Shown here: piece after piece, positions 4,796 to 61,159 of the stretch
How positions within the stretch are numbered: the first letter of the stretch is position 1
Layout: each line of letters begins with the position of its first letter
Assembly: GCA_963664405.1 (NCBI GenBank)
Contig: OY761158.1
Location: forward strand, 576,001-640,000
DNA length: 64,000 nucleotides
Reading direction: 5' to 3'
DNA from: Thermoanaerobaculia bacterium
GTDB taxonomy: Bacteria > Acidobacteriota > Thermoanaerobaculia > Multivoradales > Multivoraceae
Position numbers and translations under genes: made by a program
The notes under the pieces: model-generated
Database searches by the model: none
Seen by the model: only the letters and a program-made list of their open reading frames with translations
What the model was told of the DNA's origin: nothing

Positions 4796-4962
4796 CTAGT
4801 GTCCCGTGCGGGAAGTTCGTTGCCATTCGAGCGCCGATGCATCCCGCTGGGCGGCGTTGCTCCTCGTCGACAGAGTCCCAGCTATGCCTGCCTCGGAGCG
4901 CCTTGCCCAGCGGGCGCCTCGACGCTCTCGGTGGTCAACGAACTTCCCACACGGGACACTAG
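4796..4962 (-). repeat. CTAG-bounded ~167-bp palindromic element, copy 1 (core on - strand)
   Basis: ctagtgtcccgtgcgggaagttcgttg ... caacgaacttcccacacgggacactag; core is reverse complement of CAAGGCGC...GCAGGCATAG. Confidence 0.85.
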
Positions 4963-4979
4963 CGACAAAGGAGACACGC

Positions 4980-5294
4980 AGGATCCGGCGAGTGGTCGCA
5001 GTCAAGCTCAAAGAGGCCTACTCCAACCCTGATGATCGCGCCGTGGCGGCGGGTCACACGCGAGAGGTCCTGGCAGCGGCGCCCGGAGTTCGCGAAATCG
5101 AGGTCGACACTCCAGCCGACGCCACCACGGAGCGGTCTTGGGACTTGCTGATCCTGCTCAGCTTCGACAGCATGACTGCTGTCGAAGAGTACCGAGCTCA
5201 TCCGCTGCATCGCCAATACCTGGATGTCTTCCTGAGACCCATGCTCGAAGTGATCAAAGTCTGGAACTTCGAGCAGCTCGAGACCCCGTACTAG
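4980..5294 (+). CDS. Dabb (stress-responsive A/B barrel) protein
   Basis: IRRVVAVKLK...WDLLILLSFDS...YRAHPLH; AAGGAG RBS precedes an AGG codon at 4980 (alternative GTG at 4992). Confidence 0.75.
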   Translation, partial: RIRRVVAVKLKEAYSNPDDRAVAAGHTREVLAAAPGVREIEVDTPADATTERSWDLLILLSFDSMTAVEEYRAHPLHRQYLDVFLRPMLEVIKVWNFEQLETPY

Positions 5295-5301
5295 GCGCTC
5301 C

Positions 5302-5706
5302 TTACTTCAAAGGCCTCCCACGCTGCACGAACTGAAGCGGCGCACCTTCGGGATCGCGGAAGAACAACAACTTGTTCTCACCCATCGTCGCCGGCTCTCC
5401 CTCCATCTCGACCCCTGCGGCTGCCAGCCCGGCTACGGCTTCATCCATGTCTTCCACATCGAACGCCAAATGGACGTGAGCGGTACTGATGTCGCCCAGC
5501 TGCGCTGTGTCACCCGCGGGCATGGGAATGATCTCGATAAAACCGGTCCCGGCTGGGTCCTTGAGAAAAAAGATATGCGCTCCGATCGTCGGATGCACAA
5601 ATTTCACAGCGACTTCAAACCCCAGTACGTCGCAGTACCACTGCGCTGCCGCATCCGTGTCTCGATAAGCCACAGCAACGTGCTCCAGCGAGCCGATCTT
5701 GATCAT
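5302..5706 (-). CDS. VOC/glyoxalase family protein
   Basis: LEHVAVAYRD...WYCDVLGF, HLAFDVEDMD, FFRDPEG; AAAAGGAG RBS. Confidence 0.9.
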   Translation of the reverse strand: MIKIGSLEHVAVAYRDTDAAAQWYCDVLGFEVAVKFVHPTIGAHIFFLKDPAGTGFIEIIPMPAGDTAQLGDISTAHVHLAFDVEDMDEAVAGLAAAGVEMEGEPATMGENKLLFFRDPEGAPLQFVQRGRPLK

Positions 5707-5901
5707 CAGGGACTCCTTTTCAAAGTGCTCTTCGGAGCCCGAGAGACTAGCACGCCAAGACTGCGACAAGCTGAGCTCCAGTCGCTTCAAATTCAGATAG
5801 CGCCATCCCCTCGCAAAACCCATCAAAGAGCGCTGAAAGTGTTTTCAGCGAGGGTTCTGCCCCCCGAGCGCGTCTAAGGGGGTAGGAAGGGAGAATGATC
5901 G

Positions 5902-6498
5902 ATGAACATGTTGAATCCCTCGAGTACGTTGGTTTCGCGAAGTCAGACGAGGCCGGCCGAGAGGCGCAAGCTCTGGCGCAAGCGGGGTAGAAATATCCGT
6001 GGGCTCGCCTTCGACTCCTCAGGAGGTCGTCTGTGTATCGGTTTCCGTACTCCCCTGTTCGACGACAAAGCTCTGTTGGTCGCACTCGAACGTCGCCGGC
6101 GAGCCTTCATGGGCATGAAGGAGCGCGACCCCCAAAACGAGCTGGTGCTTCTCGATCTCGACGGTGACGGCATCCGTGACCTAGCTCACTGCTCTAGTCT
6201 CGGAGGCTGGCTCATACTCAGCCAACGCGAGGCCCAGAAGCGCCGGCGCTGCAAGCTATGGCTGTGGAGCGGCGATCCGTCCGCCAGACCCAAGAGAGTG
6301 CGGGTTAGCGGCAGCGACCATCTCGACCGGGCCGAGGGGATTACACCCTTGACGCTCGCCGGCAAGCAGAAGCTCCTGCTCGGAAGAGGCGATGCTGACT
6401 TGGTTCACCAACCCGGAGCAAAGGGTCGCATTATAGACTTCAGCGAGCTACGAGTCGAAAGCGAGGAGTCGGCTCAGAGACAAGCCGCCGGTCTATGA
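5902..6498 (+). CDS. DUF3616-like beta-propeller fragment, probably degenerate
   Basis: NIRGLA...IGFRTPL...LDLDGDGIRDLA...LWLWSG...AEGIT; N-terminus looks truncated. Confidence 0.5.
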   Translation: MNMLNPSSTLVSRSQTRPAERRKLWRKRGRNIRGLAFDSSGGRLCIGFRTPLFDDKALLVALERRRRAFMGMKERDPQNELVLLDLDGDGIRDLAHCSSLGGWLILSQREAQKRRRCKLWLWSGDPSARPKRVRVSGSDHLDRAEGITPLTLAGKQKLLLGRGDADLVHQPGAKGRIIDFSELRVESEESAQRQAAGL

Positions 6499-6510
6499 GA
6501 GTCAGCGGCC

Positions 6511-7233
6511 TCAGCCAAGGTGGCGGCGTAGGAGAGCATGCACTCGCTCCCAGTGCAGTTCGGAGGCCGCCCGGTTGTAGCGCTCACCCCCCGGCGCGTA
6601 CCCGTGAAGAGCCTCCTCCAACCAATCGAGAGTGTAGGTGATGCCGGCCGCATCGAGGGCCTCGCGCATCACCGGCACGTGCTCGGCGGGCGCGGTCGGA
6701 TCGTTGTCACACCAACCGAAGTAAACCTCGGCCTTGACCGAGTCCAGGCCCAGATGCGGCGAGTCGGGCGTGTCCCTAACCAGCCAAGCGCCGTGAATCG
6801 AAGCCACGGCCGCGACTCGTTCGGGCATAGCTCTGGCCAGGGAGATCACTAGGCCGCCGCTCATACAGAAACCGACGGCCCCAATCTTCCCGCCCGCAGC
6901 CGCCGGGTCATCGCCCGCCACTGCCAAGAGCGCTTCGGCGTCGCTGATGATGTTGGTGGGTGTCACCGTCCCCATCAGATCTCTTCTAACGTGCATATCC
7001 TCGTCACTTTGACCGAACTCTCGGAACGGCCCGCCGCGGTAAAACAGGTACGGCATCATCACGTAGTACCCGGCGCTAGCGAGTCGCGAGGCCATCTCCT
7101 TGAGGGCGGGTCGGATGCTGGGGGCGTCCATCAAGTAGAGCACGACCGGGTGCGGCCCTCCGTGCTCGGGGTGGTAGATGAAGGTCTTCATATCGCCTTC
7201 GGTTGTCGTGATATCCAGCTCGCGGTCAATCAT
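6511..7233 (-). CDS. Dienelactone hydrolase family protein
   Basis: GAVGFCMSG nucleophile motif, HGYA, ASELHWER. Confidence 0.9.
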   Translation of the reverse strand: MIDRELDITTTEGDMKTFIYHPEHGGPHPVVLYLMDAPSIRPALKEMASRLASAGYYVMMPYLFYRGGPFREFGQSDEDMHVRRDLMGTVTPTNIISDAEALLAVAGDDPAAAGGKIGAVGFCMSGGLVISLARAMPERVAAVASIHGAWLVRDTPDSPHLGLDSVKAEVYFGWCDNDPTAPAEHVPVMREALDAAGITYTLDWLEEALHGYAPGGERYNRAASELHWERVHALLRRHLG

Positions 7234-7313
7234 GCCGTCATCATCTCATGTGCAGATCGTAAAGACAGGCCGCTGCCAATCAAGAGAAACGTCGATGTTA
7301 GTGTTCGCCGAAT

Positions 7314-8102: not shown

Positions 8103-8113
8103 ACCGGGACGGC

Positions 8114-8779: not shown

Positions 8780-9002
8780 GGACCGGAGCTCCTGTGGACC
8801 AAGGCCGTGGATTGGCGGCACATCAGCCGAGGCTCAGAGCGAGTCGCCTCGAACCCTCATTCGATTGCGACTGACGAGTGTCGATTGTAGCCTCTATTGA
8901 AGAACCGTGGAGGTCGCCACATCGCGAAGATCACTCCGCCTGGAGAGGTAGTCATCACCAGTGCACCACCTCCTCGGCTCTGCGAAGTCGAGTCCTTCGT
9001 CA

Positions 9003-9169
9003 CGAGTACATGCGGCCATAAGTACGGGTACGTTTCGAACGTCGATGCGCCTCGCCAGCAAGACGCGCGACTGAGGCGTACCTGGGAGTACGTCGCAGGG
9101 AGCGCAACGCCGCTGGAGAGGATGCAGCGGCGTTCCAAACGTGCCCGTACTTGTGGCCACATGTACTAG
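9003..9169 (+). repeat. CTAG-type palindromic element, copy 2 (167 bp)
   Basis: cgagtacatgcggccataagtacgggtacg ... cgtgcccgtacttgtggccacatgtactag; core CAAGACGCG...GAGGCGTAcctgggagTACGTCG...GCAACGCCGC. Confidence 0.8.
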
Positions 9170-9244
9170 TAGCTTCCGTCGCAGTGTGGCTGTAGGACAA
9201 AAGATCTGTCCGTTTGCGATGACCCGGATGAGGAGATTAGACTG

Positions 9245-14581: not shown

Positions 14582-14749
14582 CTAGTGGACCGTAACACTC
14601 GAACGTTTAGTGGCTGAGTGAGTCATTCGTGGTCGAGATCAAGGCGCGCTGACGCAGGCATAGCGGGGACTATGTCGAGGAAGCGTAACGCAGAGATCGG
14701 CCACGAGGGCCGCTCAGGCGCTAAACGTTCGGGTGTTACGGCCCGCTAG
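14582..14749 (+). repeat. CTAG-bounded palindromic element, copy 3 (168 bp)
   Basis: ctagtggaccgtaacactcgaacgtttag ... ctaaacgttcgggtgttacggcccgctag; core CAAGGCGCG...GCAGGCATAGcggggaCTATGTCGAGG. Confidence 0.85.
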
Positions 14750-21006: not shown

Positions 21007-21867
21007 ATGGGTGCACTGAGAGATCGGATGGAGACGGACATGAAGCTGCACGACTTTCGACCGGCGACCCAATCGCAGTACTTGCACTGCGTGCGCCGGC
21101 TGGCGAAGCACTACGGGCGCTCGCCCGATGAGCTGTGCGAAGAGGAGGTGCGCAGTTTCCTGCTCTACCTCCGCGAGGACCGTGCTTTGAGCTCGGCGAG
21201 TATCAGCACCTACACGGCGGCGCTGAAGTTCTTCTACGGGATCACCCTTCACCGCGAGGAGATGGTGCCCTCGTTAGGCGCGCCGAAGGTGCGCACGCAG
21301 CTTCCGGTCATCCTCTCGGGCACCGAGGTCGCGGCGGTGCTTGGCGCGATCCGCTCGCACGAGCTGCGTACGTTGGCCACGGTTCTGTACGCTTCGGGCC
21401 TGCGCATCAGCGAAGCGTGCGCGCTGGAGGTGTCAGACATCGACTCCGAGCGCATGCTGATCCATGTGCGCGACGGTAAGGGCGGGCGCGACCGCTTCGC
21501 CCTTCTCAGCCCGCAGCTGCTCAAGGTGCTGCGTCGATACTTCCGCAAAGAGCGCCCCGAGCCGCCCTATCTGTTTCCCGCTCCGCGCTCCGGCAAGACG
21601 TTGCGCCCCGACACGGTGCGTAAGAGCCTGCATCGGGCGGCTTTGCGCTGCGGGATTGTCAAGCGTGTGACCCCACACCTGCTGCGTCACTGCTTTGGCG
21701 CCCACATGCTGGAACTGGGCACTGATATCCGTGTGCTGCAGGCGCTGTTGGGTCACCGCTCGATCCGCACGACCCAGCTGTACGTACAGGTCTCCACCCA
21801 GCTGATCGCGCGCACCCCAAGCCCGTTGGACCTGCTCGGCACTCCCGCGGGCAAGGTCCTCGGATAA
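21007..21867 (+). CDS. Site-specific tyrosine recombinase/integrase
   Basis: SGLRISE, GKGGRDR, HLLRHCF, LLGHRSIRTTQLY. Confidence 0.95.
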   Translation: MGALRDRMETDMKLHDFRPATQSQYLHCVRRLAKHYGRSPDELCEEEVRSFLLYLREDRALSSASISTYTAALKFFYGITLHREEMVPSLGAPKVRTQLPVILSGTEVAAVLGAIRSHELRTLATVLYASGLRISEACALEVSDIDSERMLIHVRDGKGGRDRFALLSPQLLKVLRRYFRKERPEPPYLFPAPRSGKTLRPDTVRKSLHRAALRCGIVKRVTPHLLRHCFGAHMLELGTDIRVLQALLGHRSIRTTQLYVQVSTQLIARTPSPLDLLGTPAGKVLG

Positions 21868-21885
21868 CCGCGCGCTACAGCAACC

Positions 21886-23112
21886 GTGCACCCCCAGCAG
21901 GGGTGCGCTCGGCAGCTCGACCGCAAGGCGGGTCGGCCTCGCTTTGAGCTCGGCGAGATCTTCCGGGCGCACATCGACGCCTTTCGCGACCGCACCACCC
22001 TGAGCCCAGAGCAGGCTCAGGTGGTGCGGGCCCTCTGTGCCTGCCGCACCGCGCAGCTCGGCGGGCATCTGGACGTATGTCTGAACTGCGGCTTTAGGCG
22101 CCCGGCCTATAACTCATGCCGGAATCGTCACTGCCCCAAGTGCCAGGCGCTGGATCAGCACCGCTGGCTCGAGCGGCGCCTTTCTCGCATCCTGCCGGTC
22201 GCGTACTTTCACGTCGTCTTCACTCTGCCAGGAGAGCTTGCCTCGGTCGGCCTGCGCAACCGGCGGTTGGTGTACGAGCTGCTCTTCCGAGCCGCCTCCG
22301 AAACGCTGTTGACCCTTGGCAAGGACCCCCAGCGGCTCGGGGCTCTGCTCGGCATCACAATGGTGCTGCACACCTGGACCCGGGACCTGCGCTTCCATCC
22401 GCATGTGCACGCCATCGTCACGGGCGGGGGTCTGAGCCTCGAGGGTCAGCGGTGGCTCTCGACGGGCAACAAGTATCTGTTTCCCGTGAAGCTTCTGGGC
22501 AGGCTGTACCGCGGCAAGTTTCTGCACCACCTCGCCCGCGCTTACCAAGACGGACAGCTCGACCTGCCAGCAGAGCTGGCTGCCGACGGTGGCTTCGACC
22601 GCCTGCTGGACAAGCTCTACGCCAAGGACTTCATCGTCTACGCCAAGCGTCCCTTCGCCGGCCCGCAGCAGGTCTTCTCCTACCTCGGCCGCTATACCCA
22701 TCGGGTCGCCCTGTCCAACCACCGAATCCTCGACGTTACCGACAAGGCCATCACCCTCGCCACCCGCCACCCAAAGACGGTGACGCTGTCCCCCGAGGAG
22801 CTCATCCGCCGTTTCCTACTGCACGTCCTGCCCCGACGATTCCAAAAGATCCGCCATTACGGATTGATGGCCTCGGCCAACGTCCACTCTCGCCTCGAGC
22901 GAGCCCGCGCTCTGCTCGAGTCCACCGCCACAGCTACCCAGGCCGAAACCTCCCGCCCCGTCCCCATCGAGTCGGAAACCACAAACGAGCTCCTCCAACG
23001 CCTCACCGGCATCGACCTCGCGATCTGTCCCGCCTGCCAAGGTCCCCGCCTCCAACGTTTCCCCCTCGACCCTCCTGCCTACGCCCGGCCTCCACCGGTG
23101 GCGGCCGCGTGA
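21886..23112 (+). CDS. IS91-family (Y2/HUH) transposase with Zn-binding N-terminus
   Basis: CRTAQLGG, YNSCRNRHCPKCQ, HPHVH (HUH), YLGRYTHR, IRHYG. Confidence 0.92.
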   Translation: MHPQQGCARQLDRKAGRPRFELGEIFRAHIDAFRDRTTLSPEQAQVVRALCACRTAQLGGHLDVCLNCGFRRPAYNSCRNRHCPKCQALDQHRWLERRLSRILPVAYFHVVFTLPGELASVGLRNRRLVYELLFRAASETLLTLGKDPQRLGALLGITMVLHTWTRDLRFHPHVHAIVTGGGLSLEGQRWLSTGNKYLFPVKLLGRLYRGKFLHHLARAYQDGQLDLPAELAADGGFDRLLDKLYAKDFIVYAKRPFAGPQQVFSYLGRYTHRVALSNHRILDVTDKAITLATRHPKTVTLSPEELIRRFLLHVLPRRFQKIRHYGLMASANVHSRLERARALLESTATATQAETSRPVPIESETTNELLQRLTGIDLAICPACQGPRLQRFPLDPPAYARPPPVAAA

Positions 23113-39270: not shown

Positions 39271-40131
39271 ATGGGTGCACTGAGAGATCGGATGGAGACG
39301 GACATGAAGCTGCACGACTTTCGACCGGCGACCCAATCGCAGTACTTGCACTGCGTGCGCCGGCTGGCGAAGCACTACGGGCGCTCGCCCGATAAGCTGT
39401 GCGAAGAGGAGGTGCGCAGTTTCCTGCTCTACCTCCGCGAGGACCGTGCTTTGAGCTCGGCGAGTATCAGCACCTACACGGCGGCGCTGAAGTTCTTCTA
39501 CGGGATCACCCTTCACCGCGAGGAGATGGTGCCCTCGTTAGGCGCGCCGAAGGTGCGCACGCAGCTTCCGGTCATCCTCTCGGGCACCGAGGTCGCGGCG
39601 GTGCTTGGCGCGATCCGCTCGCACGAGCTGCGTACGTTGGCCACGGTTCTGTACGCTTCGGGCCTGCGCATCAGCGAAGCGTGCGCGCTGGAGGTGTCAG
39701 ACATCGACTCCGAGCGCATGCTGATCCATGTGCGCGACGGTAAGGGCGGCCGCGACCGCTTCGCCCTTCTCAGCCCGCAGCTGCTCAAGGTGCTGCGTCG
39801 ATACTTCCGCAAAGAGCGCCCCGAGCCGCCCTATCTGTTTCCCGCTCCGCGCTCCGGCAAGACGTTGCGCCCCGACACGGTGCGTAAGAGCCTGCATCGG
39901 GCGGCTTTGCGCTGCGGGATTGTCAAGCGTGTGACCCCACACCTGCTGCGTCACTGCTTTGGCGCCCACATGCTGGAACTGGGCACTGATATCCGTGTGC
40001 TGCAGGCGCTGTTGGGTCACCGCTCGATCCGCACGACCCAGCTGTACGTACAGGTCTCCACCCAGCTGATCGCGCGCACCCCAAGCCCGTTGGACCTGCT
40101 CGGCACTCCCGCGGGCAAGGTCCTCGGATAA
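39271..40131 (+). CDS. Site-specific tyrosine recombinase/integrase
   Basis: One amino acid different (E/K) from 21007..21867. Confidence 0.95.
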   Translation: MGALRDRMETDMKLHDFRPATQSQYLHCVRRLAKHYGRSPDKLCEEEVRSFLLYLREDRALSSASISTYTAALKFFYGITLHREEMVPSLGAPKVRTQLPVILSGTEVAAVLGAIRSHELRTLATVLYASGLRISEACALEVSDIDSERMLIHVRDGKGGRDRFALLSPQLLKVLRRYFRKERPEPPYLFPAPRSGKTLRPDTVRKSLHRAALRCGIVKRVTPHLLRHCFGAHMLELGTDIRVLQALLGHRSIRTTQLYVQVSTQLIARTPSPLDLLGTPAGKVLG

Positions 40132-40149
40132 CCGCGCGCTACAGCAACC

Positions 40150-41376
40150 GTGCACCCCCAGCAGGGGTGCGCTCGGCAGCTCGACCGCAAAGCGGGTCGG
40201 TCTCGCTATGACCTGGGCGAGATCTTCCGGGCGCACATCGACGCCTTCCGTGACCGCCACTTCTTGAGTCCTTTACAGGCTCAGGTGGTGCGGGCGATCT
40301 GTGCCTGCCGCACCGCGCAGCTGGGCGGGCATCTGGACGTGTGTCGGGACTGCGGCTATAGGCGCCCTGCGTATAACTCATGCCGGAATCGTCACTGCCC
40401 CAAGTGCCAGGCGCTGGATCAGCACCGTTGGCTCGAGCGGCGCCTGTCTCGCATTCTCCCGGTCGGCTACTTTCACGTCGTCTTCACCCTGCCGGGGGAG
40501 CTCGCCTCAGTGGGTCTGCGCAACCGCCGCCTTGTCTACGAGCTGCTCTTCCGAGCCGCGGCGGAAACGCTTCTGACCCTCGGCAAGGATCCCCAACGGC
40601 TCGGAGCCCTGCTCGGCATCACGATGGTGCTGCACACCTGGACTCGGGACCTGCGTTTCCACCCCCATATCCACGCCATCGTCACCGGCGGAGGACTCAG
40701 CCTCGACGGACGGCGGTGGCTCTCGACGGGCGAGAAGTATCTGTTTGCCGTCAAGCTTCTGGGGAGGCTGTACCGCGGTAAGTTTCTCGGCCACCTGGCC
40801 CGTGCCTACAAAGACGGACAGCTCGACCTGCCACGAGATCTGGCCGAGGACGGTGGCTTCGATCGCCTGCTGTCGAAGCTCTACGCCAAGGACTTCATCG
40901 TCTACGCCAAGCGTCCCTTCGCCGGTGCGCAGCAGGTCTTCTCCTACCTGGGCCGCTATACCCATCGAGTCGCACTGTCCAACCACAGAATCCTCAACGT
41001 CACGGAGCAGGCCATCACCCTCGCCACGCGCGATGGCAAGACCGTGACGCTCTCTCCCGAGGAGCTCATCCGCCGCTTTGTGCTGCACGTCCTGCCCCGA
41101 CGATTCCAAAAGATTCGCCACTATGGACTCATGGCCTCGGCCAACGTCCACTCTCGCCTCGAGCGAGCCCGCGCTCTGCTCGAGTCCACCGCCACAGCGA
41201 CCCAGGCCGAAACCTCCCACCCCATCCCCATCGAGTCGGAAACCACAAACGAGCTCCTCCAACGCCTCACCGGCATCGACCTCGCGATCTGTCCCGCCTG
41301 CCAAGGTCCCCGCCTCCAACGTTTCCCCCTCGACACTCCTGCCTACGCCCGGCCTCCACCGGTGGCGGCCGCGTGA
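40150..41376 (+). CDS. IS91-family (Y2/HUH) transposase
   Basis: YNSCRNRHCPKC, HPHIH, YLGRYTHR. Confidence 0.92.
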   Translation: MHPQQGCARQLDRKAGRSRYDLGEIFRAHIDAFRDRHFLSPLQAQVVRAICACRTAQLGGHLDVCRDCGYRRPAYNSCRNRHCPKCQALDQHRWLERRLSRILPVGYFHVVFTLPGELASVGLRNRRLVYELLFRAAAETLLTLGKDPQRLGALLGITMVLHTWTRDLRFHPHIHAIVTGGGLSLDGRRWLSTGEKYLFAVKLLGRLYRGKFLGHLARAYKDGQLDLPRDLAEDGGFDRLLSKLYAKDFIVYAKRPFAGAQQVFSYLGRYTHRVALSNHRILNVTEQAITLATRDGKTVTLSPEELIRRFVLHVLPRRFQKIRHYGLMASANVHSRLERARALLESTATATQAETSHPIPIESETTNELLQRLTGIDLAICPACQGPRLQRFPLDTPAYARPPPVAAA

Positions 41377-48880: not shown

Positions 48881-48882
48881 CT

Positions 48883-53048: not shown

Positions 53049-55130
53049 TCAAGCCTTTACTTCGGCGGCCTTACGGGCCACCAATTCTTCTTGCACAGAA
53101 TCCGGGGCGGGGGCGTAGCGGGAAAACTCCATGGTGAACTCGGCCTTGCCCTGGGTCGACGAGCGTAGCGAGGTGGCGTAGCCGAACATCTCGGCCAGCG
53201 GTACCTCGGCATCGGTGGCCGCCATGACCCCGTCCTCCTCCGAGCCTATGATCGAGGCGCGGCGCTGCATCAAAGTGGTCAGAACAGCACCGCTGAACTC
53301 ACTCGGGCTCTCGACCGAGACGCGCATGATCGGCTCGAGTACCCGCGGCTTACCGCGATCGTAAGCCTCTCTCCAGGCGCCGCGAGCCGCCTCTTTGAAA
53401 GCGATCTCCGAAGAGTCGACTGCGTGGTTGTTGCCATCGTTGATGACCACTCGTACGTTGACGACCGGAGCGCCGATCTTGCGACCCTCGGCTATCATCG
53501 AGCGAAATCCCTTCTGCACCGCCGGGATGAACTTGGTGGGAATGACTCCACCCCTGATCTCGTCAACGAACTCGAATTCGGCATCCGGATTCGGTTCGAT
53601 GTACCCGGTGACGCGACCGTACTGGCCTGAGCCACCGGTCTGCTTCTTGTGGATGTAGTCGAAGTCGACGCGCCGGGTCACCGTCTCGCGGTAGGCGACG
53701 CGAGGGGGAGAGACTTCGACTTCGACGCTGTACTCCCGTCGCATGCGCTCGAGATAGACCTCGAGCTGTAGCTCGCCCATGCCGTGAATAACGGTCTCTC
53801 CCGAATCGGGATCGGCACCGGCCCGGAAGGTTGGATCCTCCTTGGTGAAGCGACGCAGGGCCTTGGTGAGGTTGGCCTGCGACTTGTTGCCCACCGGATG
53901 CACCGACAAGGAGATGACCGGCTCCGGAACGTAAATCGAAGTCAAGGCCACCTGCAGGCCGCCGCTGGTAAAGGTGTCGCCGGAGTGGCAGTCGAGACCA
54001 AATATGGCAACGATGTCGCCAGGTCCCGCCTCCAACACATCCTCCATCTCGTCTGCGTGCATCCGCACCAGACGACCGATCTTGGTCTGTTTGCCCGTAC
54101 GCGTGTTAGTGATCAACGTCTCGCGGTTGGCCGTGCCCTGGTAGAGACGGATGTAGGTGAGTTGCCCATAACGCCCGTCTTCGAGCTTGAAGGCGAGGAG
54201 AACGACATCATCGTCAGGGTCGCTGGACAAGATCATCTTGTCCTCATCAGCGCTATCGAGGCGGATGCCCTCGTTCACAATCTCGGTGGGGTTCGGGAGA
54301 TAGCGACATACTGCATCGAGTAGGGGCTGCACGCCCTTGTTCTTGTAGGCCGAACCAATCAACATCGGCGTCAGCTGAAGCGAGATCGTCGCTTCTCGAA
54401 TCGCCTCCCAGATGACCTCTTCGCTGAGCGTGTCTTCGAGAATGGCTTCCATGAGCTCGACCGAGAACATCGAAACCGCATCGAGCATCTCTTCGCGAGC
54501 AGCTTCGGCGGCCGCTTTATGCTCGCCGGGAATCTCCCGATCCACCGGCTCTTCGCCAAATTCGCCCTCGAAATAGATCGCCTTCATCGAGATGAGATCG
54601 ATGACCCCCTCGAAGTCGTGACCCAGGCCGATCGGCAACTGCAAGAGCACCGGATTCTGCCCGAGCTTCTCTCGTAGCTGATCCCTCACCCGATGAGGAT
54701 CGGCCCCCTCCCGATCGCACTTGTTGACGAAGGCAATACGGGGCACCTTGTAGCGGTTCATCTGCCGGTCGACGGTGAAGGACTGACTCTGTACTCCGGC
54801 CACCGCGCAGAGCACCAGCACCGCCCCATCGAGCACCCGCAAACTACGCTCGACTTCGATGGTGAAGTCGACGTGGCCAGGGGTATCGATGATGTTGATG
54901 TGATTGCCGTCCCATTCGCAGTGAGTGGCGGCGGAGGCGATGGTGATGCCTCGCTCGCGCTCCAGCTCCATCGAGTCCATCTTGGCGCCGACCCCGTCCT
55001 TGCCACGAACGTCGTGGATGGCGTGAACCCGATCGGTGTAGAAAAGAACTCGCTCCGTCAGGGTAGTCTTGCCGCTGTCGATGTGTGCGGAGATCCCGAT
55101 ATTGCGTAGAGTGCTGAGGTCTTGGGTCAT
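53049..55130 (-). CDS. fusA: Elongation factor G
   Basis: [58 protein letters not shown]. Confidence 0.95.
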
Positions 55131-55348
55131 GGCTGCTCTCCTGGAGGGCTACCTGCGGAGCTCGAGTTCAGCGCCTAGACCTAGACGCCCCAAGCTCAGG
55201 GGCAATCGAAATAGTTGATCTTGTTGAGGAATCGAAATGCCGACGACTGCCGGCACACCGCATTGCGCGAACAGGCCAAACTCAGAGCCCGATACATACG
55301 CAGAGAGCGTACTTTACCACAGAAGTCAAATAGAAAGGCGATTAGTTC

Positions 55349-56029
55349 ATGGATTTCAACGAGGTAGTCCGCACCACCTTTGCTGCGCGCGAGTTCCTGC
55401 CCGATCCAGTCCCCGACCAGGCCCTCTACGAGATCCTCGAACACGCTCGCTTCGCACCTAGTGGAGGTAATCGCCAGGGCTGGCACGTCATCATCGTCCG
55501 CGACCCCACCGCTCGCGCGCGGCTTGCCGAAATGATTCAGCCGGTGTGGCGCCTCTACCGAGCGCAGGTGGGCGCCGGCGAGAACCCGCTAAACGCCATC
55601 GTGCCAAGCAAAGTCGACGCTGAGCAAGCGGCGGAGACTCCCGCCCCCTCTCCACTTCTCGACCACCTTGACGAGCCGCTCCGGATCCCGACCCTGCTCG
55701 TTGTCACCGTCGACCTCTCGGTCGTCGCATCGATGGACAAGGATCTCGACCGCATCGGTGTCATCAGCGGAGCTTCGATCTACCCCTTCGTCTGGAACCT
55801 CCTCCTCTCCGCACGAAGCCGAGGCTACGGGGGCGTACTCACGACCTTCCTCGCCGCGGCCGAGCCTGCTGCCCAGGAGCTGCTTGGAATTCCACCCAGT
55901 CATGCGGTCGCCGCGATGGTGCCTCTGGGAAAGCCGGTCAGGCAGCTCACCAAGCTCCGACGGCGACCGGTTGAGGAGTTTGCGACTTTGGACCGCTTCG
56001 ATGGCGAGAGCTTTTCGCTTCCGGGATAG
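55349..56029 (+). CDS. Nitroreductase family protein
   Basis: ARFAPSGGNRQGWH, GASIYPFVWNLLL. Confidence 0.9.
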   Translation: MDFNEVVRTTFAAREFLPDPVPDQALYEILEHARFAPSGGNRQGWHVIIVRDPTARARLAEMIQPVWRLYRAQVGAGENPLNAIVPSKVDAEQAAETPAPSPLLDHLDEPLRIPTLLVVTVDLSVVASMDKDLDRIGVISGASIYPFVWNLLLSARSRGYGGVLTTFLAAAEPAAQELLGIPPSHAVAAMVPLGKPVRQLTKLRRRPVEEFATLDRFDGESFSLPG

Positions 56030-56064
56030 AGACCGAGACGAAAGTGAGGATCGGCGCTCGAGAG

Positions 56065-56231
56065 CGAGTGTCCTGTATCAGTGGTTCGTTGCATAAATCG
56101 CGCAGTCATTTTGGGTGCTGCCAAGGCGCTACGACGAAGGCATATTGGGCAATATTGCGAGGAGGAGAAACGACGGCAGCGCGCAAAAGGGCCAGCGAGT
56201 TGTGGGACGAACTACTGGTACAGGACACTAG
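56065..56231 (+). repeat. CTAG-type palindromic element, copy 4 (167 bp)
   Basis: cgagtgtcctgtatcagtggttcg ... cgaactactggtacaggacactag; core CAAGGCGC...GAAGGCATATtgggcaATATTGCGAGG. Confidence 0.85.
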
Positions 56232-56776
56232 CTCTTCAGCCCCTCGAGCATGCTGATGAAGGCATCACGCTCGGCGGCAGCGGTCGCACCAGGAGCAACC
56301 AAGCGCAAGAACCAGGGCCCGCCCTCGCCCTCGACGATCGCCCCCAGCAGACGGTAGCCCGGCAGATCCGTGCTCGGAAAGGAGCCGATACGGCTCGCTT
56401 TGAGCGTCCCGGAAACGTCAACCGTGTGCACTCGGAGGCTGCCGACCGAGAGCTCTTCACGGATCGGCCCGCTTCCTGCCGCCAATTCGAGCTGGCCAAT
56501 CCACCGCTCGATATTGGCCTCGACTCCCCCACCGCCGCCCACTCCAAAATGAAAAACCAGAAACTCCCCATCGCCGCCGGCTCCAGGCACCCTCGCCTGC
56601 AGAAGACGCATATTCGAGCTTGGTGTCTCGGGCTCCCAGCCGGACGGAATCTCGATGCCTAGTCCACGAGCAGAGATCACCTCGGCCGCCACTCCGCCGC
56701 CAACCGCGAACAAGAATGCCGCGGCTATCAGCGTCGGAAGCCGGTAAGGGGCCGGGCCCGTGACGATTCGGATCAT
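56228..56776 (-). CDS. Secreted hypothetical protein
   Basis: PSSNMRL, FHFG...GGVEANIERWIGQ, YRLLGAIVEGEGGPWFLRL; stop TAG lies in the CTAG of element copy 4. Confidence 0.75.
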   Translation of the reverse strand: MIRIVTGPAPYRLPTLIAAAFLFAVGGGVAAEVISARGLGIEIPSGWEPETPSSNMRLLQARVPGAGGDGEFLVFHFGVGGGGGVEANIERWIGQLELAAGSGPIREELSVGSLRVHTVDVSGTLKASRIGSFPSTDLPGYRLLGAIVEGEGGPWFLRLVAPGATAAAERDAFISMLEGLKS

Positions 56777-56856
56777 GAAAGTAGGCTGCGGAGCGTTGGA
56801 AGACACCGGCGCAGAGGCTAGCAGAAAGTGAAATGGATCGTCTCGGCCCTTCGCAC

Positions 56857-57022
56857 CTAGTGTTGTGTCTCCGACATGGCTTGCCAAGAGCTCGAGGTCA
56901 TTTTGTTCGCTGTCAAGGAGCGACGAGGCAGGCATATTTGGAATATGTCGACGAGTCGCGACGACGGCAGCGGGCAAAAGGGGCCGAGATATTGGTAAGC
57001 CATGTCGGAGACACGGCACTAG
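56857..57022 (+). repeat. CTAG-bounded palindromic element, copy 5 (166 bp)
   Basis: ctagtgttgtgtctccgacatggcttgccaa ... ttggtaagccatgtcggagacacggcactag. Confidence 0.88.
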
Positions 57023-57031
57023 AATGGCGCG

Positions 57032-57985
57032 GTGAGCAGCTCTCCCCAAGAGACCCCTTTGCCTACGTTCCGGCGGCGCACTCTGGATGAGCCAGAGATC
57101 GTCCACCCCCACCGGCGCCATCTCTTCCATCCCAAGCGGGGCTGGTTCCGTAGACTCGAGCGCTGGCTGAGCTCCCTGCTGAGCGCTCGAATCTACCCCC
57201 ACTTCCCCATCCTTGGCGCTGTCTACTCTCGACAGATCGAACGCGACCTCACAGTGGCGGAGGTCGAAATCGGGATCCGGAGTCTAGGTAGTGCCTTCGA
57301 TGGTCTGCAGCTGTTGTTGGTGAGCGACATTCATACCGGGGCCTTCCTTCCTCCGCCCATCCTCAGTCAGACCTTCGAACGGCTTGCCTCGCTCGCGCCC
57401 GATGTGATCCTCCTCTGCGGCGACCTCATTACGACCCGGCTGGAAGACCTCACAGAACATCTGGAAGCCTTCGCCGCCCTCGGGGCCCCACTCGGCGTCT
57501 TCGCAGTTCTCGGCAACCATGACCACTACACCGAGGACGTGGGTGCGCTGAAGCAGCAGTTGGAAGAAACAGGGGTTGAGCTCCTCCACAACCGCTCGAT
57601 CGAGCTGAAGTGCGGCGGCGACCGTCTCTTCCTCGCCGGCATCGACGACTGGCTCATGGGCGAGCCGGACCTTCCAGCAGCGCTCGAAGGTGTAGAGCGC
57701 CCCACCGTTCTCCTCTCACACAACCCGGACTCCTTCTTCGACGCGGCGGCATCGAGCGTAGATCTCGTGCTCTCGGGGCACACTCACGCCGGCCAGATCC
57801 GAGTTCCCGGACTCGGGGTTCTGGTACGCCAGAGTCGTTACGGCCTCGATGACGGCCGTTACCGGCTCGGGGAGTGCGAGCTCGTTGTCAGTCGGGGATT
57901 AGGAGCCGTAGGACTTCCGTTGCGCTTGGCCTGCCCGCCAGAAGCCGTGCTCATCCGACTGCGACAGCGGACGCCCCGCCCCTAG
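57032..57985 (+). CDS. Metallophosphoesterase (YkuE/YaeI-like)
   Basis: SDIH, GDL, GNHDH, LSHNPD, SGHTHAGQ. Confidence 0.92.
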   Translation: MSSSPQETPLPTFRRRTLDEPEIVHPHRRHLFHPKRGWFRRLERWLSSLLSARIYPHFPILGAVYSRQIERDLTVAEVEIGIRSLGSAFDGLQLLLVSDIHTGAFLPPPILSQTFERLASLAPDVILLCGDLITTRLEDLTEHLEAFAALGAPLGVFAVLGNHDHYTEDVGALKQQLEETGVELLHNRSIELKCGGDRLFLAGIDDWLMGEPDLPAALEGVERPTVLLSHNPDSFFDAAASSVDLVLSGHTHAGQIRVPGLGVLVRQSRYGLDDGRYRLGECELVVSRGLGAVGLPLRLACPPEAVLIRLRQRTPRP

Positions 57986-58005
57986 CCGAATGGTAGCCTG
58001 CCGAA

Positions 58006-58767
58006 GTGCCAGGGCCCGACTATCTACAGCGGAACCGGACGCAGTGGAACACCCTCGCCGCCGAGTACGCGCCCCGCGCCGTTCTCTCCTGGGCGCAGTC
58101 GGAGCCGAGCTGGGGAATCTGGGGGATCCCGGAGTCCGAGCTCGGCCTACTTGCCGACGTCGCCGGCAAGGACGCGCTCGAAGACGGCTGCGGCACCGCT
58201 TATGTATCGGCGTGGATGAAGCGCAGAGGAGCCGCACCGGTCGGGCTCGACAACTCCCCCGCCCAACTGGCGACGGCGAGGCGGATGCAGCGCGAGCACG
58301 ATCTTCACTTTCCGCTCGTTCACGGTGCGGCAGAGACGCTGCCCTTCCCGACGGAGAGCTTCGACCTGGTCTTCTCCGAGTACGGGGCCGCGATCTGGTC
58401 CGACCCTTACCTGTGGATTCCCGAGGCGAGCCGTGTGCTCCGCCAGGGTGGAGAGCTCATTCACCTCGGCAACGGGACTCTGCTCATGGCCTGCATGCCG
58501 GAGCTCGATACCGACCTGCCCGCCAAGCACGAGCTGTTGAGGGACTATTTCGGCATGCATCGATTCGAGTGGCCCGACGACGAAAGCGTCGAGTTTCATC
58601 TCGGATACGGCGACTGGATTCGCCTCTTTCGAAGCCACGACCTCGAGGTCCTGGACCTTCTGGAACTGCGCCCGTCAGCAGGAGCGGAAACGGTCTATGA
58701 CTTCGTCAGCGCGGAATGGGCGCGCCGATGGCCGGCAGAGCAGGTCTGGAGGGTGCGCAAGCGCTGA
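58006..58767 (+). CDS. Class I SAM-dependent methyltransferase
   Basis: LEDGCGTAY, GLDNS, SFDLVFSEYGA. Confidence 0.9.
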   Translation: MPGPDYLQRNRTQWNTLAAEYAPRAVLSWAQSEPSWGIWGIPESELGLLADVAGKDALEDGCGTAYVSAWMKRRGAAPVGLDNSPAQLATARRMQREHDLHFPLVHGAAETLPFPTESFDLVFSEYGAAIWSDPYLWIPEASRVLRQGGELIHLGNGTLLMACMPELDTDLPAKHELLRDYFGMHRFEWPDDESVEFHLGYGDWIRLFRSHDLEVLDLLELRPSAGAETVYDFVSAEWARRWPAEQVWRVRKR

Positions 58768-58797
58768 GCGGACCTAGGGCCACCCCTCAAAGCGAAC

Positions 58798-60027
58798 ATG
58801 AGCACTCTGGCTGCACCGCGCCTCTGTTGCCTCGACCTCGACACCTTCTTCGTCTCGGTCGAGAGACTCCTCGACTCCTCCCTCGAAGGCAAGCCTGTGA
58901 TCGTGGGAGGTCGGCCAGGCCAGCGCGGCGTGGTCACCGCATGTAGCTACGAGGTACGCACTTTCGGCGTGCGCTCCGGAATGTCCCTCACCGAGGCTGT
59001 GCGCCTCGCCCCTCGAGAGGCCATCTTCCTGCCGACCCGCAGCGACACCTACGGGCAGTACTCCAAGGCCGTGCGAGAAATCGCCGCCCGCTACTCGCCG
59101 GTCATCCAGGTCGCCAGCATCGACGAGCTCTACATGGACCTCGCCGGCTGCGAAGCGCTCTACCGCAAGCCTGGCGACGCCTCGGATGACGCGACGATCT
59201 TGCGCACCGTTCGCGAGCTGACGACGACGATCAAAACTGAGCAGGGACTCCCGGCCAGCGTCGGCATCGCCACCAGTCGATCGATGGCCAAGGTCGCAAG
59301 CGGACTCGCCAAGCCGGCGGGAGTTCTTCTCATTCCCGGCGGCACCGAAGCGGAGCTACTGGCGCCACTTCCCGTTCGCAAGCTCCCCGGCATCGGACCG
59401 GTGGCGGAGGCGAAGCTCTCCAGCCACGGGATCGGGACTCTCGGCCAGATCGCCTCGGCGCCGCTCCCCGAGCTACAGCAGATCTTCGGGGCCTGGGCCG
59501 AGCATGTTCAGGCGGGGGCGCGCGGCGAAGGATCCTCGGATCTCAGTCGCGATCGGCCCGCGTTCCGCGAGCATGACCTCGCCGGCGACTCGGTCGGTAG
59601 CATCTCGAACGAGCGTACCTTCGGTCGCGACGTGCGCGATCCCAGCGTCCTCGAGGCGCGCTTGTGCTCTCTGTGCGAACGAGTGTGCTGGCGGGCACGA
59701 AAGCGGGGAGTCAAAGCTCGTACGGTGACACTCAAGCTTCGCTATTCCGATTTCCAGACCCTCTCCCGTTCCAGAACCATCCCCCCCACCTCCTCCGAGC
59801 TCGAGATCTTTCCCGTCATCAAGGAGCTCATGGCCAAGGCGCACACCCGCGGTAGAAGCATCCGCCTGCTCGGCGTGGCGCTCTCAAATCTCGGATTCTT
59901 CGACAACCAGCTATCACTCTTCGAAGACGCTCGGCGCAACCAGGCCGTGGACGGGATCCGCGAGAAGTTCGGCTACGATGCAGTTCGCCTGGCTTCTGGG
60001 CGTCGGTTTCAAACGCGACGGCAATGA
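58798..60027 (+). CDS. dinB: DNA polymerase IV
   Basis: LDLDTFFVSVE, CSYEVRTFGVRSGM, SIDELY, AKPAG, LPGIG, IRLLGV. Confidence 0.93.
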   Translation: MSTLAAPRLCCLDLDTFFVSVERLLDSSLEGKPVIVGGRPGQRGVVTACSYEVRTFGVRSGMSLTEAVRLAPREAIFLPTRSDTYGQYSKAVREIAARYSPVIQVASIDELYMDLAGCEALYRKPGDASDDATILRTVRELTTTIKTEQGLPASVGIATSRSMAKVASGLAKPAGVLLIPGGTEAELLAPLPVRKLPGIGPVAEAKLSSHGIGTLGQIASAPLPELQQIFGAWAEHVQAGARGEGSSDLSRDRPAFREHDLAGDSVGSISNERTFGRDVRDPSVLEARLCSLCERVCWRARKRGVKARTVTLKLRYSDFQTLSRSRTIPPTSSELEIFPVIKELMAKAHTRGRSIRLLGVALSNLGFFDNQLSLFEDARRNQAVDGIREKFGYDAVRLASGRRFQTRRQ

Positions 60028-60100
60028 GAGTGGGCGCCGCTGCGGGAAGCGGTAGGCGAGCGGCGGCCCGGCCCGCGCTTCGGGTGTCTTGAGGGCGGGT

Positions 60101-60979
60101 TCAGGCCCTGTTTGCGGCAAGCAGGCTGGTTTCTCTCACAATGGCAGGGAGGCTGAGTCGCGACGCCATTTCCGCCAAGCCGTCACCGCCGCCACGCCAA
60201 CACAATGCATCGACTGAGCCGGAGACCGGTGCTTGGCGAACGACGGTGGCGATCTTTCTGAACAGCAGCGCCAGCTCGACCCGGCCCGCAAGAGTCTCTG
60301 CGAGCTTCGCCCGGCCACGAACCTCGACCGCCCAGTCCTCTCCGCGCGCCGGGATCTGTTCAATATGCTCGTAGTGAGCCAGCACCTTGGCGCTCGACTT
60401 CGCCCCCCAGCCCTTGATCCCGGGAAAGCCGTCGGCGGTGTCACCAACCAGGGCCAGGTAGTCTGGGATCGACGTCGGCAGCACCCCGAACTTGGCAACC
60501 ACTCCCGCCTCGTCGTAGCGCACTCCCTGGCGACGGTCGAACTGCACGACTCGCTTCCCCACCACGCACTGCGAAAGATCCTTGTCCGGGGTACAGATCA
60601 GAACTTCGGTCACGCGCTCGTCGCGCCCCGCCATCTCCGCGCCGGCGGCAAGAGCATCGTCAGCCTCGTACTCGACCATCGGCCAGACCACGATACCGAG
60701 CGCCTCCAGCGCCTCCTCCACCACCGGAAACTGCGCCAGGAGATCCGGCTCCACGCCCTCGCCGGACTTGTAGCCCGGCCACAGATCGTTTCGAAACGAG
60801 GGAATGATGTGGTCGGTGGCGACCGCGAGGTGGGTGGCCCCATCATGCAGCATGTTGAGGACCGACATGACGACGCCTCGAGTTGCGGCCAACTCGAAGC
60901 CCGCGGCGTCACGGTAGCTCGGCACCGCGAAGTAGTGGCGAAAAAGCTCGTAGGTACCGTCGATCAGGTGCACGCGCAT
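60101..60979 (-). CDS. Stand-alone 5'-3' exonuclease/flap endonuclease
   Basis: LIDGTYELFR, EADDALA, PDKDL, DYLALVGDTADGFPGIKGWGAKS. Confidence 0.9.
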   Translation of the reverse strand: MRVHLIDGTYELFRHYFAVPSYRDAAGFELAATRGVVMSVLNMLHDGATHLAVATDHIIPSFRNDLWPGYKSGEGVEPDLLAQFPVVEEALEALGIVVWPMVEYEADDALAAGAEMAGRDERVTEVLICTPDKDLSQCVVGKRVVQFDRRQGVRYDEAGVVAKFGVLPTSIPDYLALVGDTADGFPGIKGWGAKSSAKVLAHYEHIEQIPARGEDWAVEVRGRAKLAETLAGRVELALLFRKIATVVRQAPVSGSVDALCWRGGGDGLAEMASRLSLPAIVRETSLLAANRA

Positions 60980-60992
60980 GGCGGATGGGTCC

Positions 60993-61159
60993 CTAGTGTC
61001 GTGTCCCAGAAATGCCTACCCAATAGCTCGGCCCCTTTCGCTCGCTGCCTTCGTTACGCCTCGTCGACAGATTTCCCAATATGCCTGCCTCGCCGCGCCT
61101 TGGCAGCGAACGAAATGACCTCGATCTATTAGGCAGGCATTTCCGGGACACGGCACTAG
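60993..61159 (-). repeat. CTAG-bounded palindromic element, copy 6 (167 bp, core on - strand)
   Basis: ctagtgtcgtgtcccagaaatgcct ... aggcatttccgggacacggcactag. Confidence 0.88.

Follow-up and report, generated by a model that had tools for sequence, protein, structure and literature searches.

A window of 64,000 nucleotides from a Thermoanaerobaculia genome (the whole stretch of DNA analysed here) carries six hairpin elements of almost invariant length whose arms differ strongly between copies while each copy stays self-complementary. These elements raise two questions: whether they are mobile DNA or loci of a structured RNA, and what selection acts upon. Reading of the window located all six copies of the preliminary description, with lengths of 167, 167, 168, 167, 166 and 167 bp in the order of their positions. 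The copies at 4796..4962 (core on the minus strand), 14582..14749 (plus strand), 56857..57022 (plus strand) and 60993..61159 (core on the minus strand) have CTAG at both ends. Those at 9003..9169 and 56065..56231, both on the plus strand, begin with CGAG and end with CTAG. The asymmetric internal loop GTCAT/GGGCC is found in the copies at 14582, 56065, 56857 and 60993; a different conserved asymmetric loop takes its place in those at 4796 and 9003. In the 14582 copy the element proper begins at the G after TA, and its left terminal inverted repeat spans approximately 14584..14612 (plus strand; partner 14719-14747). Alignments, pair counts and folds place the conserved asymmetric core of this copy at 14640..14691 on the plus strand, from CAAGGCG to AACGC. 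Its small covarying stem-loop includes a conserved G-U pair and is flanked by two purine-rich internal loops, GA/GA(A), with one covarying C:G/G:C pair between them.

An nhmmer profile built from the six window copies and run on the 6.78-Mb genome gave 273 matches, with the core present at 265 loci. The copies are dispersed singly around the chromosome and the family amounts to 0.65% of the genome. Clustering defined eight subfamilies (142, 35, 22, 16, 13, 11, 10 and 8 copies) and seven clusters of one or two copies; within the eight subfamilies 242 of the 257 copies are complete. The elements are non-coding, 166-198 bp long, and their median similarity to the subfamily consensus ranges from 0.86 to 1.00. 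By nhmmer and clustering, the window copies belong to six different subfamilies: D (4796; 8 genome copies; nhmmer match at genome positions 580962-580796), G (9003; 13 copies), E (14582; 35 copies), A (56065; 22 copies), C (56857; 16 copies) and B (60993; 11 copies). Each of these subfamilies has 8-35 near-identical copies in the genome. The earlier statement that the copies are not near-identical is thus to be withdrawn: the apparent divergence is a sampling effect, the window holding one copy per subfamily. Internally deleted “mini” and “solo” forms also occur. Integron attC sites, which are arrayed at cassette boundaries beside an integron integrase and keep their structure but not their central sequence, were considered as a candidate and do not fit on two counts: the copies are scattered singly rather than arrayed, and it is the centre of the element, not its ends, that is conserved in sequence.

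An ORF on the minus strand (56228-56779) takes its TAG stop codon from the right-hand CTAG of the 56065 copy, and the 60993 copy sits between the divergent starts of a 5′-3′ exonuclease gene (60101-60979, minus strand) and an ORF at 61178 (plus strand). Location between divergent genes, described previously as frequent, applies to four or five of the six window copies according to rough gene calls but does not extend to the genome, where only 50 of the 265 copies are so placed against a background of 20%. Convergent gene sites are the ones enriched (82 of 265 copies; background 20%). Of the 191 copies in the genome that are bounded by CTAG, 74 are directly adjacent to a predicted TAG stop codon. 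The orientation of the 265 copies shows no preference relative to flanking genes (66 sense-tandem and 67 antisense-tandem), and of the copies next to a stop codon, 27 have the core strand in sense and 41 in antisense orientation (p = 0.11).

The ends of the elements were compared in 243 near-complete copies, 188 of which have CTAG on both sides. The inner G is found in all 243 and the inner C in 240, while the outermost C and G are found in 223 and 226, respectively. Mixed ends are TTAG..CTAG (4 copies), CTAG..CTAA (9) and TTAG..CTAA (2); TTAG..TTAG and CTAA..CTAA are absent from the 243 copies, and CTAG is the sole matched 4-bp repeat. This pattern of end variants argues for a 2-bp TA duplication rather than a 4-bp one. 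On these statistics, the TA inside a preferred CTAG target would be duplicated and the element would run from G to C. IS630 itself prefers CTAG and inserts at TA with TA duplication. A 2.7-kb composite found at two loci (97.3% identical) consists of an F-type MITE whose loop contains an IS91-like element, and is bounded at each locus by MITE ends and CTAG, which lends indirect support to mobility. Contigs of four public runs end at copies of the family; no empty site or polymorphism was found among them.

Candidate sources of the transposition function were searched in the genome and in relatives. DDE_3 transposase genes (Pfam) are present at two loci of the genome. The full resident DDE_3 element has CTAG on both flanks and ends like those of subfamily G; by a count made by eye, ~21 of 31 terminal bases of the 9003 copy are common with the left end of this IS. 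The two resident IS630-type elements are either truncated or split, with HTH and DDE lying in separate reading frames. A relative (G039) has at least 69 near-identical MITE matches and a 1.2-kb element whose product is an intact HTH+DDE_3 transposase of 365 aa (Pfam); the terminal bases of this IS and of the MITE are alike at 23 of 24 positions at one end and at 15 of 15 at the other. Two further CTAG-flanked IS630 types are found in another relative (G034), one with ends similar to the subfamily E type. No match to DDE_3 or to the G039 transposase was obtained in three relatives with 30-40 copies each (G004, G005 and G024); 20 of the ~38 copies of G005 were compared and have a median identity of 97.6%. 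The core is missing from all 13 IS630 loci examined. An autonomous IS with shared terminal repeats was found in G039, and the resident IS shows a looser likeness to subfamily G; for subfamilies A-F and H, no cognate of the IS630 type was found in the genome.

The elements might instead move as single-stranded DNA by means of an HUH (Y1) transposase, like REPINs or IS200/IS605, CTAG being then a cleavage or target tetranucleotide and not a duplication. This would suit an element that is wholly hairpin, with strand-specific stability and an orientation biased relative to replication, in a genome with 13 Y1_Tnp-like ORFs. However, only one of these 13 ORFs lies within 1.5 kb of a copy (random expectation 10.8%), the end variants fit TA duplication, and the ends match IS630 elements located in the same CTAG sites. 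The replication bias is also weak: with the origin assumed at the GC-skew minimum (2.74 Mb; dnaA is at 3.42 Mb), the core strand coincides with the lagging-strand template in 102 copies and with that of the leading strand in 155 (a modest 60:40; p = 0.001), which puts the stable strand on the leading-strand and not the lagging-strand template. We consider movement by a Y1 enzyme highly improbable. The option of a non-autonomous mobile element with a CTAG target, already raised in the preliminary description, is in turn sustained by the TA/CTAG flank statistics, the near-identical dispersed copies and the ends common with IS630-family insertion sequences. IS630-mobilised MITEs are probably the best reading of these sequences, with mobilisation in trans as an inference. 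We are rather confident that they form a large non-autonomous MITE family, trans-mobilised by IS630/Tc1-mariner-type DDE transposases and composed of outer terminal inverted repeats and a conserved inner cargo.

Covariation of the arms was substantiated by RNAalifold, which predicted 47 pairs from 15 sequences of the genome, 37 of them with compensatory double changes. Paired cells amount to 96.1% compared to 70.6 ± 1.2% in 500 shuffles, none of which reached the observed value, and to 30-46% when partners were slid by 1-3 columns. The outer ~25-30 nt vary between subfamilies but match within each copy, and the terminal ~15 nt are almost devoid of G-U pairs; the inner arms are conserved, as is the asymmetric core of ~52 nt. 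For the outer ~25-30 nt, covariation has a simpler cause than selection on a fold, since a single transposase has to accept both ends. The strand bias of mismatches is also borne out: on the core strand, the arms of the eight subfamily consensus sequences have 47 G:T versus 14 A:C. In 11 relatives the outer-arm G-U pairs number 52 versus 19, and 10 of the 11 are more stable when folded on the core strand; in 44 distinct public elements these pairs number 155 versus 49, and all 44 have their more stable fold on the core strand. Young single-copy mutations show 43 versus 31 only (Fisher tests of young mutations against fixed differences, p = 0.027 and 0.0045). An asymmetry stronger in fixed differences than in young mutations argues for selection rather than mutation bias, and points to a fold selected on one strand only. 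This family-wide asymmetry supports the initial proposal of selection on a single-stranded fold, but its corollary that sequence itself is not selected was too strong, as the ~52-nt core and the inner-arm loops are sequence-conserved across phyla. Acidobacteriota contain full-length relatives, as do genomes that bear the labels Geobacteraceae, Gemmatimonadota and Actinomycetota, and the core alone is found in other hairpin elements (Bdellovibrio, Bifidobacterium and others). Across families, classes and phyla the length (165-170 nt) and the fold are kept while the arms diverge by point changes.

Selection on the fold would be dispensable if young subfamilies were born as near-perfect palindromes, or were kept so by template switching from one arm to the other as the DNA replicates, the G:T excess being a mutational by-product. 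Copies within a subfamily are indeed near-identical, double compensatory changes are found even in single copies (13 singleton events), and the “mini” and “solo” deletion forms show that the hairpin is mutagenic. These processes do not account for the persistence of length and fold between phyla despite arm divergence, nor for the compensated flips of the one C:G/G:C pair that separates the two GA loops in the core. Mutation bias would also be expected to give equal G:T to A:C ratios, whereas the ratio is ~3.2-3.4 in fixed differences and 1.4 in young mutations. We hold this explanation to be unlikely.

The same data bear on the possibility that the family is a multicopy structured ncRNA gene, in which every copy would encode a functional RNA and CTAG at the ends would be either included in it or incidental. 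Strong covariation, tolerance of G-U on one strand, conserved purine-rich internal loops (of tandem G-A type) and the conserved G-U pair of the core are features of such a gene, and bcr1 and ERIC are described as transcribed repeats that keep an RNA fold by compensatory changes (PMC3184786, PMC2229807). On the other side, Rfam release 15 gave no match at gathering score in the 64-kb window, and 14 elements from several phyla gave only chance-level matches at E ≤ 1. No conserved promoter-like block precedes the 5′ arm, as the outer arms vary by subfamily, and orientation relative to neighbouring genes is random. Single copies decay about neutrally (the 43 versus 31 above), and near-identical scattered copies, target-site statistics and transposon-like ends point to mobility as DNA. 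The stand-alone ncRNA gene, the second option put forward at the outset, is thus quite improbable.

For the IS630-mobilised MITE, we propose the following arrangement. The element would insert at TA, preferably in CTAG. Its outer terminal inverted repeats (~25-30 nt) are subfamily-specific and look like the termini of various IS630-family insertion sequences; one transposase having to fit both ends, these would change together. The cargo (~110 nt) comprises the inner arms with their fixed asymmetric loops and the ~52-nt core; it is retained across phyla, evolves by compensatory changes and has a good fold on just one strand. Against this arrangement, neither a strand-specific fold nor a conserved non-terminal core is predicted by cut-and-paste DDE transposition of duplex DNA alone. 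We infer that the cargo acts in single-stranded form. Our guess is that this form could plausibly be a core-strand hairpin in single-stranded DNA during replication or transposition; it may well be neither this hairpin nor RNA, and RNA is a lesser possibility. More tentatively, the ~110-nt inner hairpin may be an ancient, horizontally spreading cargo that co-diverged with many IS630 lineages through re-tuning of the terminal repeats, and that works as a strand-specific single-stranded hairpin, either as ssDNA (aiding the element's own excision, synapsis or copying at the replication fork) or as RNA.

MITEs are usually described as short-lived deletion derivatives with conserved ends and arbitrary interiors. 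The present family reverses this pattern: its interior keeps length, fold and ~52-nt core from one phylum to another, and the ends change to match different IS630 transposases. Should the core serve transposition or the host, it would offer a practical way to study how non-autonomous elements last over long periods and cross lineages. A single-stranded cargo, if true, would introduce a step that depends on single-stranded structure into a transposon superfamily whose movement is held to involve duplex DNA alone. In practical terms, the copies break short-read assemblies and sit on the stop codons and in the promoter regions of many genes, and their absence from Rfam means that the family will go on being flagged as a candidate ncRNA.

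Several known repeats share features with these elements. REPINs, and REP sequences with RAYT transposases, are hairpin-forming, high-copy and thought to act as single-stranded DNA. The present family likewise forms hairpins at high copy number but differs by its lack of association with Y1 genes, its terminal inverted repeats shared with IS630 and its TA-duplication pattern. RUP (repeat unit of pneumococcus) is described as a 107 bp non-coding element of about 100 copies that inserts at TA, has terminal repeats like those of IS630-family IS and is proposed to be moved by IS630-Spn1 (PMC2229807). Its small non-coding nature, IS630-like ends and TA insertion, as given in that description, are those found here; RUP is known from one genus and is presumably unrelated in sequence, and the same description reports for it neither a cross-phylum core nor a strand-specific fold. 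ERIC (IRU) is presented in the same source as an imperfect palindrome of ~127 bp, intergenic and co-transcribed, whose RNA fold is implicated in mRNA stability (PMC2229807), and it appears as MITEEc1_IS630 in an IS-Finder comparison (PMC11602168). According to these accounts it resembles our elements in being palindromic, intergenic and labelled IS630, but length and core differ and the gene orientation of the present family is unbiased. A window copy had no match in 5,426 complete E. coli genomes (blastn, word size 11, E ≤ 1). The Correia (nemis) element of Neisseria is portrayed as a MITE that forms one long hairpin by pairing of its ends and bears functional motifs at its centre, namely an IHF site and promoter-like sites (PMC2229807). 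The hairpin formed by the ends and the motifs in the middle are, on that portrayal, likenesses to our elements, but its central motif is a protein site in double-stranded DNA whereas in the present family covariation of the central stem speaks for base pairing and against a fixed duplex site. Finally, bcr1 of the Bacillus cereus group is characterized as a non-autonomous, transcribed element of ~155 bp whose fold is kept by compensatory changes (PMC3184786). As characterized there, it shares size, lack of autonomy and fold-preserving compensatory changes with the elements studied here, and is distinguished by its 5-bp direct repeats, two-hairpin fold and restriction to one group, while the present family has TA/CTAG ends and a single long hairpin and is found in multiple phyla.

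The six hairpin copies of the window belong to a real and very abundant MITE family of the IS630 type, a known kind of element. Reading of the sequence bore out the copies at 4796-4962 (167 bp, subfamily D, core strand −), 9003-9169 (167 bp, subfamily G, core strand +), 14582-14749 (168 bp, subfamily E, core strand +), 56065-56231 (167 bp, subfamily A, core strand +), 56857-57022 (166 bp, subfamily C, core strand +) and 60993-61159 (167 bp, subfamily B, core strand −), the core strand being the one on which the conserved centre of the element reads. Their ends and inner loop are as the preliminary description gave them: all six end with CTAG, which is also the start of four copies while two start with CGAG, and the asymmetric loop GTCAT opposite GGGCC is present in four copies, the remaining two having a different asymmetric loop in common. 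The genome carrying the family is a single contig (here C1) of 6.78 Mb with a G+C content of 62.6%. A profile built on the six window copies has 273 matches in it, and a core-only profile identified 265 loci genome-wide (E < 1e-3). The latter form 15 clusters: eight subfamilies (F, 142 copies; E, 35; A, 22; C, 16; G, 13; B, 11; H, 10; D, 8), one two-member cluster and six single-member clusters. Within the eight subfamilies 242 of the 257 copies are complete, the median similarity to the subfamily consensus is 0.86-1.00, and MITE copies total 0.65% of the genome. Subfamily F, the largest, has no member in the window. The impression that copies differ strongly holds between the six window copies but not within subfamilies, whose members are near-identical; it arose because every window copy stands for another subfamily. 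An ORF of 183 aa without a Pfam match (56228-56779, − strand) sits between two copies: its TAG stop codon is part of the boundary CTAG of the subfamily A copy, and the subfamily C copy lies ~80 bp upstream of its start.

The ends define the target site. CTAG bounds 188 of the 243 near-complete copies on both sides. The left fourth base is always G (243/243) and the right first base C in 240, while the outermost bases vary (C in 223, G in 226). Mixed ends occur as CTAG..CTAA (nine copies), TTAG..CTAG (four) and TTAG..CTAA (two), with no case of TTAG..TTAG or CTAA..CTAA among the 243. A 4-bp duplication predicts matched repeats; the pattern seen is the exact prediction of a TA duplication inside xTAy by an element G...C. 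CTAG is strongly under-represented in the genome (7,502 occurrences versus 23,230 expected from base composition and 12,769 by a Markov estimate); MITE boundaries account for ~500 of these sites. By rough GC3-based gene calls, the 265 copies occupy 82 convergent, 50 divergent and 133 tandem sites against backgrounds of 20%, 20% and 60% (chi-square p = 3e-5). Of 191 copies bounded by CTAG on both sides, 74 have the TAG stop codon of a predicted gene within a boundary CTAG, which helps to explain why copies hug gene ends. In four DNA runs over window positions 55000-62000 the contigs break at the copies, with neither an empty site nor a joint across a copy.

IS630 elements prefer CTAG as target and duplicate its TA. 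That preference agrees with the CTAG that flanks IS630 elements of this genome and of the related genomes G039 and G034. The IS630-family DDE_3 domain is found at two loci of this genome. One is a complete element of ~1.25 kb with CTAG on both flanks, GTAC... ends and the HTH and DDE parts in separate reading frames; the second is devoid of its left part. The complete element is similar to subfamily G at its ends (~21 of 31 terminal bases alike, counted in the alignment). The preliminary description had raised a non-autonomous mobile element. A candidate autonomous partner is present in G039, in which at least 69 near-identical MITE copies were scored: a 1.2-kb IS630 element with an intact gene for a 365-aa protein (HTH_29/HTH_32 and DDE_3 in Pfam) has 23/24 terminal bases at one end and 15/15 at the other in common with the local MITE. 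G034 carries two further CTAG-bounded IS630 types, the ends of one resembling E-type arms. For subfamilies A-F and H the search in this genome revealed only solo or deleted ends and no cognate IS, and three relatives with 30-40 MITE copies each (G004, G005 and G024) yielded nothing matching DDE_3 or the transposase of G039. MITEs without a cognate IS are usually explained by a burst followed by loss of the autonomous partner, which may have happened in these cases; in G005, 20 of the ~38 copies were compared and have a median identity of 97.6%. The core was absent from all 13 IS630 loci examined with filters off. Two core matches at locus L028 lie outside its IS, and an apparent MITE-IS fusion in G034 proved to be two separate elements with a common CTAG. 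Weak Y1_Tnp (IS200-like) matches were found in 13 ORFs of 300-440 aa (e.g., at loci L141-L146); these are unlinked to the hairpin elements, and an association of Y1/RAYT genes with MITE copies was rejected.

The MITE ends may also move larger units. A 2.7-kb composite, found at locus L003 (137-2851) and on the reverse strand of L004 (122-2835) in copies 97.3% identical with different flanks, consists of an F-type MITE whose terminal loop holds a 2.55-kb unit coding for a tyrosine recombinase (299 aa) and an IS91-type Y2 transposase (398 aa). As both copies are bounded by MITE ends and CTAG, they are most simply explained by movement of the whole composite through use of the MITE ends. Two-gene units of the same kind occur in the window at 21007-23112 and 39271-41376, where no MITE halves were detected around them; they code for a 286-aa Phage_integrase protein and a 408-aa Y2_Tnp/Zn_Tnp_IS91 protein, as assigned by Pfam for the first unit and by identical ORF lengths for the second. 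In six F-type copies of ~260 nt (C1 481085, 657544, 706532, 4131251, 5542612 and 5754954) a CTAG within the core is interrupted by a different element of ~93 nt, and the opposite arm of most of these copies also has a short additional segment. A sequence resembling this insert, which looks like a second family of small CTAG-targeting elements, also adjoins the composite in L004. Reduced derivatives are found as well. Core-less ‘mini’ forms of subfamilies F and H (C1 2783084-2783142, 2214909-2214980, 3203597-3203683 and 6126379-6126437) keep both ends and differ in their deletion end-points. An identical 29-bp ‘solo’ remnant, composed of CTAG, the first ~21 nt of the subfamily C left end, the last right-end bases and CTAG, is present at nine or more loci (e.g., C1 515322, 970881, 1386527, 2162961 and 5442182, outside the window); it is either a very small mobile derivative or the product of hairpin-mediated deletions that recurred at a single microhomology.

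The fold of the element was analyzed in an alignment of 15 sequences of this genome (the six window copies and nine representatives). RNAalifold yielded a single long irregular hairpin of 47 pairs, 37 of them with compensatory double changes, so that the covariation earlier noted between the self-complementary arms is confirmed. Standard pairs fill 96.1% of the 697 cells, versus 70.6 ± 1.2% after shuffling (none of 500 shuffles equalled the observed value), and 30.6-46.2% after partners are displaced by 1-3 columns; these counts are biased in favour of the structure, which comes from the same alignment, but the margin is still very large. The core extends over ~52 nt from CAAGGCG to AACGC. It is topped by a small stem-loop with a covarying stem in which one G-U pair is kept. 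Beneath it come two internal loops rich in purines, GA facing GA and GAA facing GA; the one pair between them switches from C:G to G:C with compensation. A covarying helix and another conserved internal loop follow. Variation between subfamilies and between genera is highest in the outer ~25-30 nt, the inner arms fall into two conserved types, and the core hardly varies. No Rfam family was matched, either at gathering score or at E ≤ 1.

A covariance model built from these 15 sequences matches 27 of 40 related genomes of the same order (E ≤ 0.001) and at least 24 of 150 genomes drawn evenly across the phylum (E ≤ 1e-12), a minimum due to strict filters and the few candidates scored; a length of 165-170 nt is shared by almost all matches. 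Several of the relatives that carry copies have complete genomes. A pattern scan with one genome per species, in which 80 of at least 103 stretches were examined, gives a minimal taxonomic range and not a census. Among the matches listed, full-length elements are found in records labelled Acidobacteriota (Thermoanaerobaculia, Candidatus Multivoradales), Geobacteraceae, Gemmatimonadota and Actinomycetota, many of them metagenome bins in which single cases may be mis-binned. The core also occurs, among the matches listed, in hairpins that differ in arms and length, from Bdellovibrio (one of 108 nt with CTAG ends), Bifidobacterium, Ruminococcus, Dysosmobacter, Oscillospiraceae, a Syntrophobacteraceae bin and a Gammaproteobacteria bin; in these core-only matches the core prefix and suffix, outside the search pattern, are still conserved. 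A blastn search with one copy found no match in E. coli genomes or among plasmids. Two core-pattern matches in viral contigs are due to chance, neither fitting the covariance model. Between three species of one genus the copies differ in their flanks and are thus independent insertions rather than orthologues. A supposed larger core-bearing element in a Geobacteraceae-labelled genome resolved into ordinary copies cut by contig ends.

The two strands of the element are not equivalent. The strand bias of G-U pairs already noticed in the window extends to the arms of the eight subfamily consensus sequences (core strand: 47 G:T versus 14 A:C; binomial p = 3e-5), for which ViennaRNA predicts that the core strand folds 2-37 kcal/mol more stably than its opposite. 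The core strand is also the more stable one in 10 of 11 other genomes (outer-arm G-U 52 versus 19) and in all 44 distinct full-length public elements (155 versus 49, Wilcoxon p = 3e-8); the strand was set by the asymmetric core, which makes the outer-arm counts largely independent of that choice. The terminal ~15 nt avoid G-U pairs, which are scattered elsewhere. Young, single-copy variants comprise 43 changes from Watson-Crick pairs to G:T and 31 to A:C (p = 0.2). Fixed differences show other proportions (Fisher p = 0.027 for the consensus set and 0.0045 for the public set), with counting methods that vary somewhat between the sets. This contrast is predicted by selection on propagating lineages and not by mutation bias.

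Selection of this kind might act on the cargo (inner arms and core) as RNA or as single-stranded DNA. RNA seems rather unlikely: copies in tandem with their flanking genes show no preference for sense (66) or antisense (67) orientation and, at the 68 copies that abut one stop codon only, the core strand reads sense 27 times and antisense 41 times (p = 0.11). With respect to replication, 155 copies have the core strand on the leading-strand template and 102 on the lagging-strand template (p = 0.001). This bias is modest, and it was computed with the origin placed at the minimum of the cumulative GC skew (2.74 Mb), a position made uncertain by the location of dnaA at 3.42 Mb. The lean towards the leading-strand template is seen in seven of the eight subfamilies. 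The skew minimum lies ~0.68 Mb from dnaA (3.418 Mb) and implies unequal replichores of ~4.0 and 2.8 Mb. Either faster loss or preferential excision of copies with the stable hairpin exposed on the lagging-strand template would fit the bias, and the existence of ‘mini’ and ‘solo’ forms demonstrates that internal deletions happen. We therefore lean towards a single-stranded DNA hairpin over RNA as the acting form of the cargo, a reading that is plausible but falls short of probable and leaves a large remainder unexplained.

A full-text search of literature outside subscription journals and supplements found no description of the family, which may be listed unnamed in the MITE catalogue of a 183,232-genome survey (PMC11602168). 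That survey labels ERIC as MITEEc1_IS630. The closest described elements are RUP, ERIC and Correia elements (PMC2229807) and bcr1 (PMC3184786). RUP of pneumococcus has ends like IS630-Spn1 and a TA target, and the MITE cores of different bacteria are described there as without similarity (PMC2229807); bcr1 is transcribed and its fold is kept by compensatory changes (PMC3184786). As an abundant set of IS630-type MITEs the present family is a known kind of thing. It is unusual in its architecture, in that variable ends enclose a conserved, strand-specifically folded interior that is spread across phyla.
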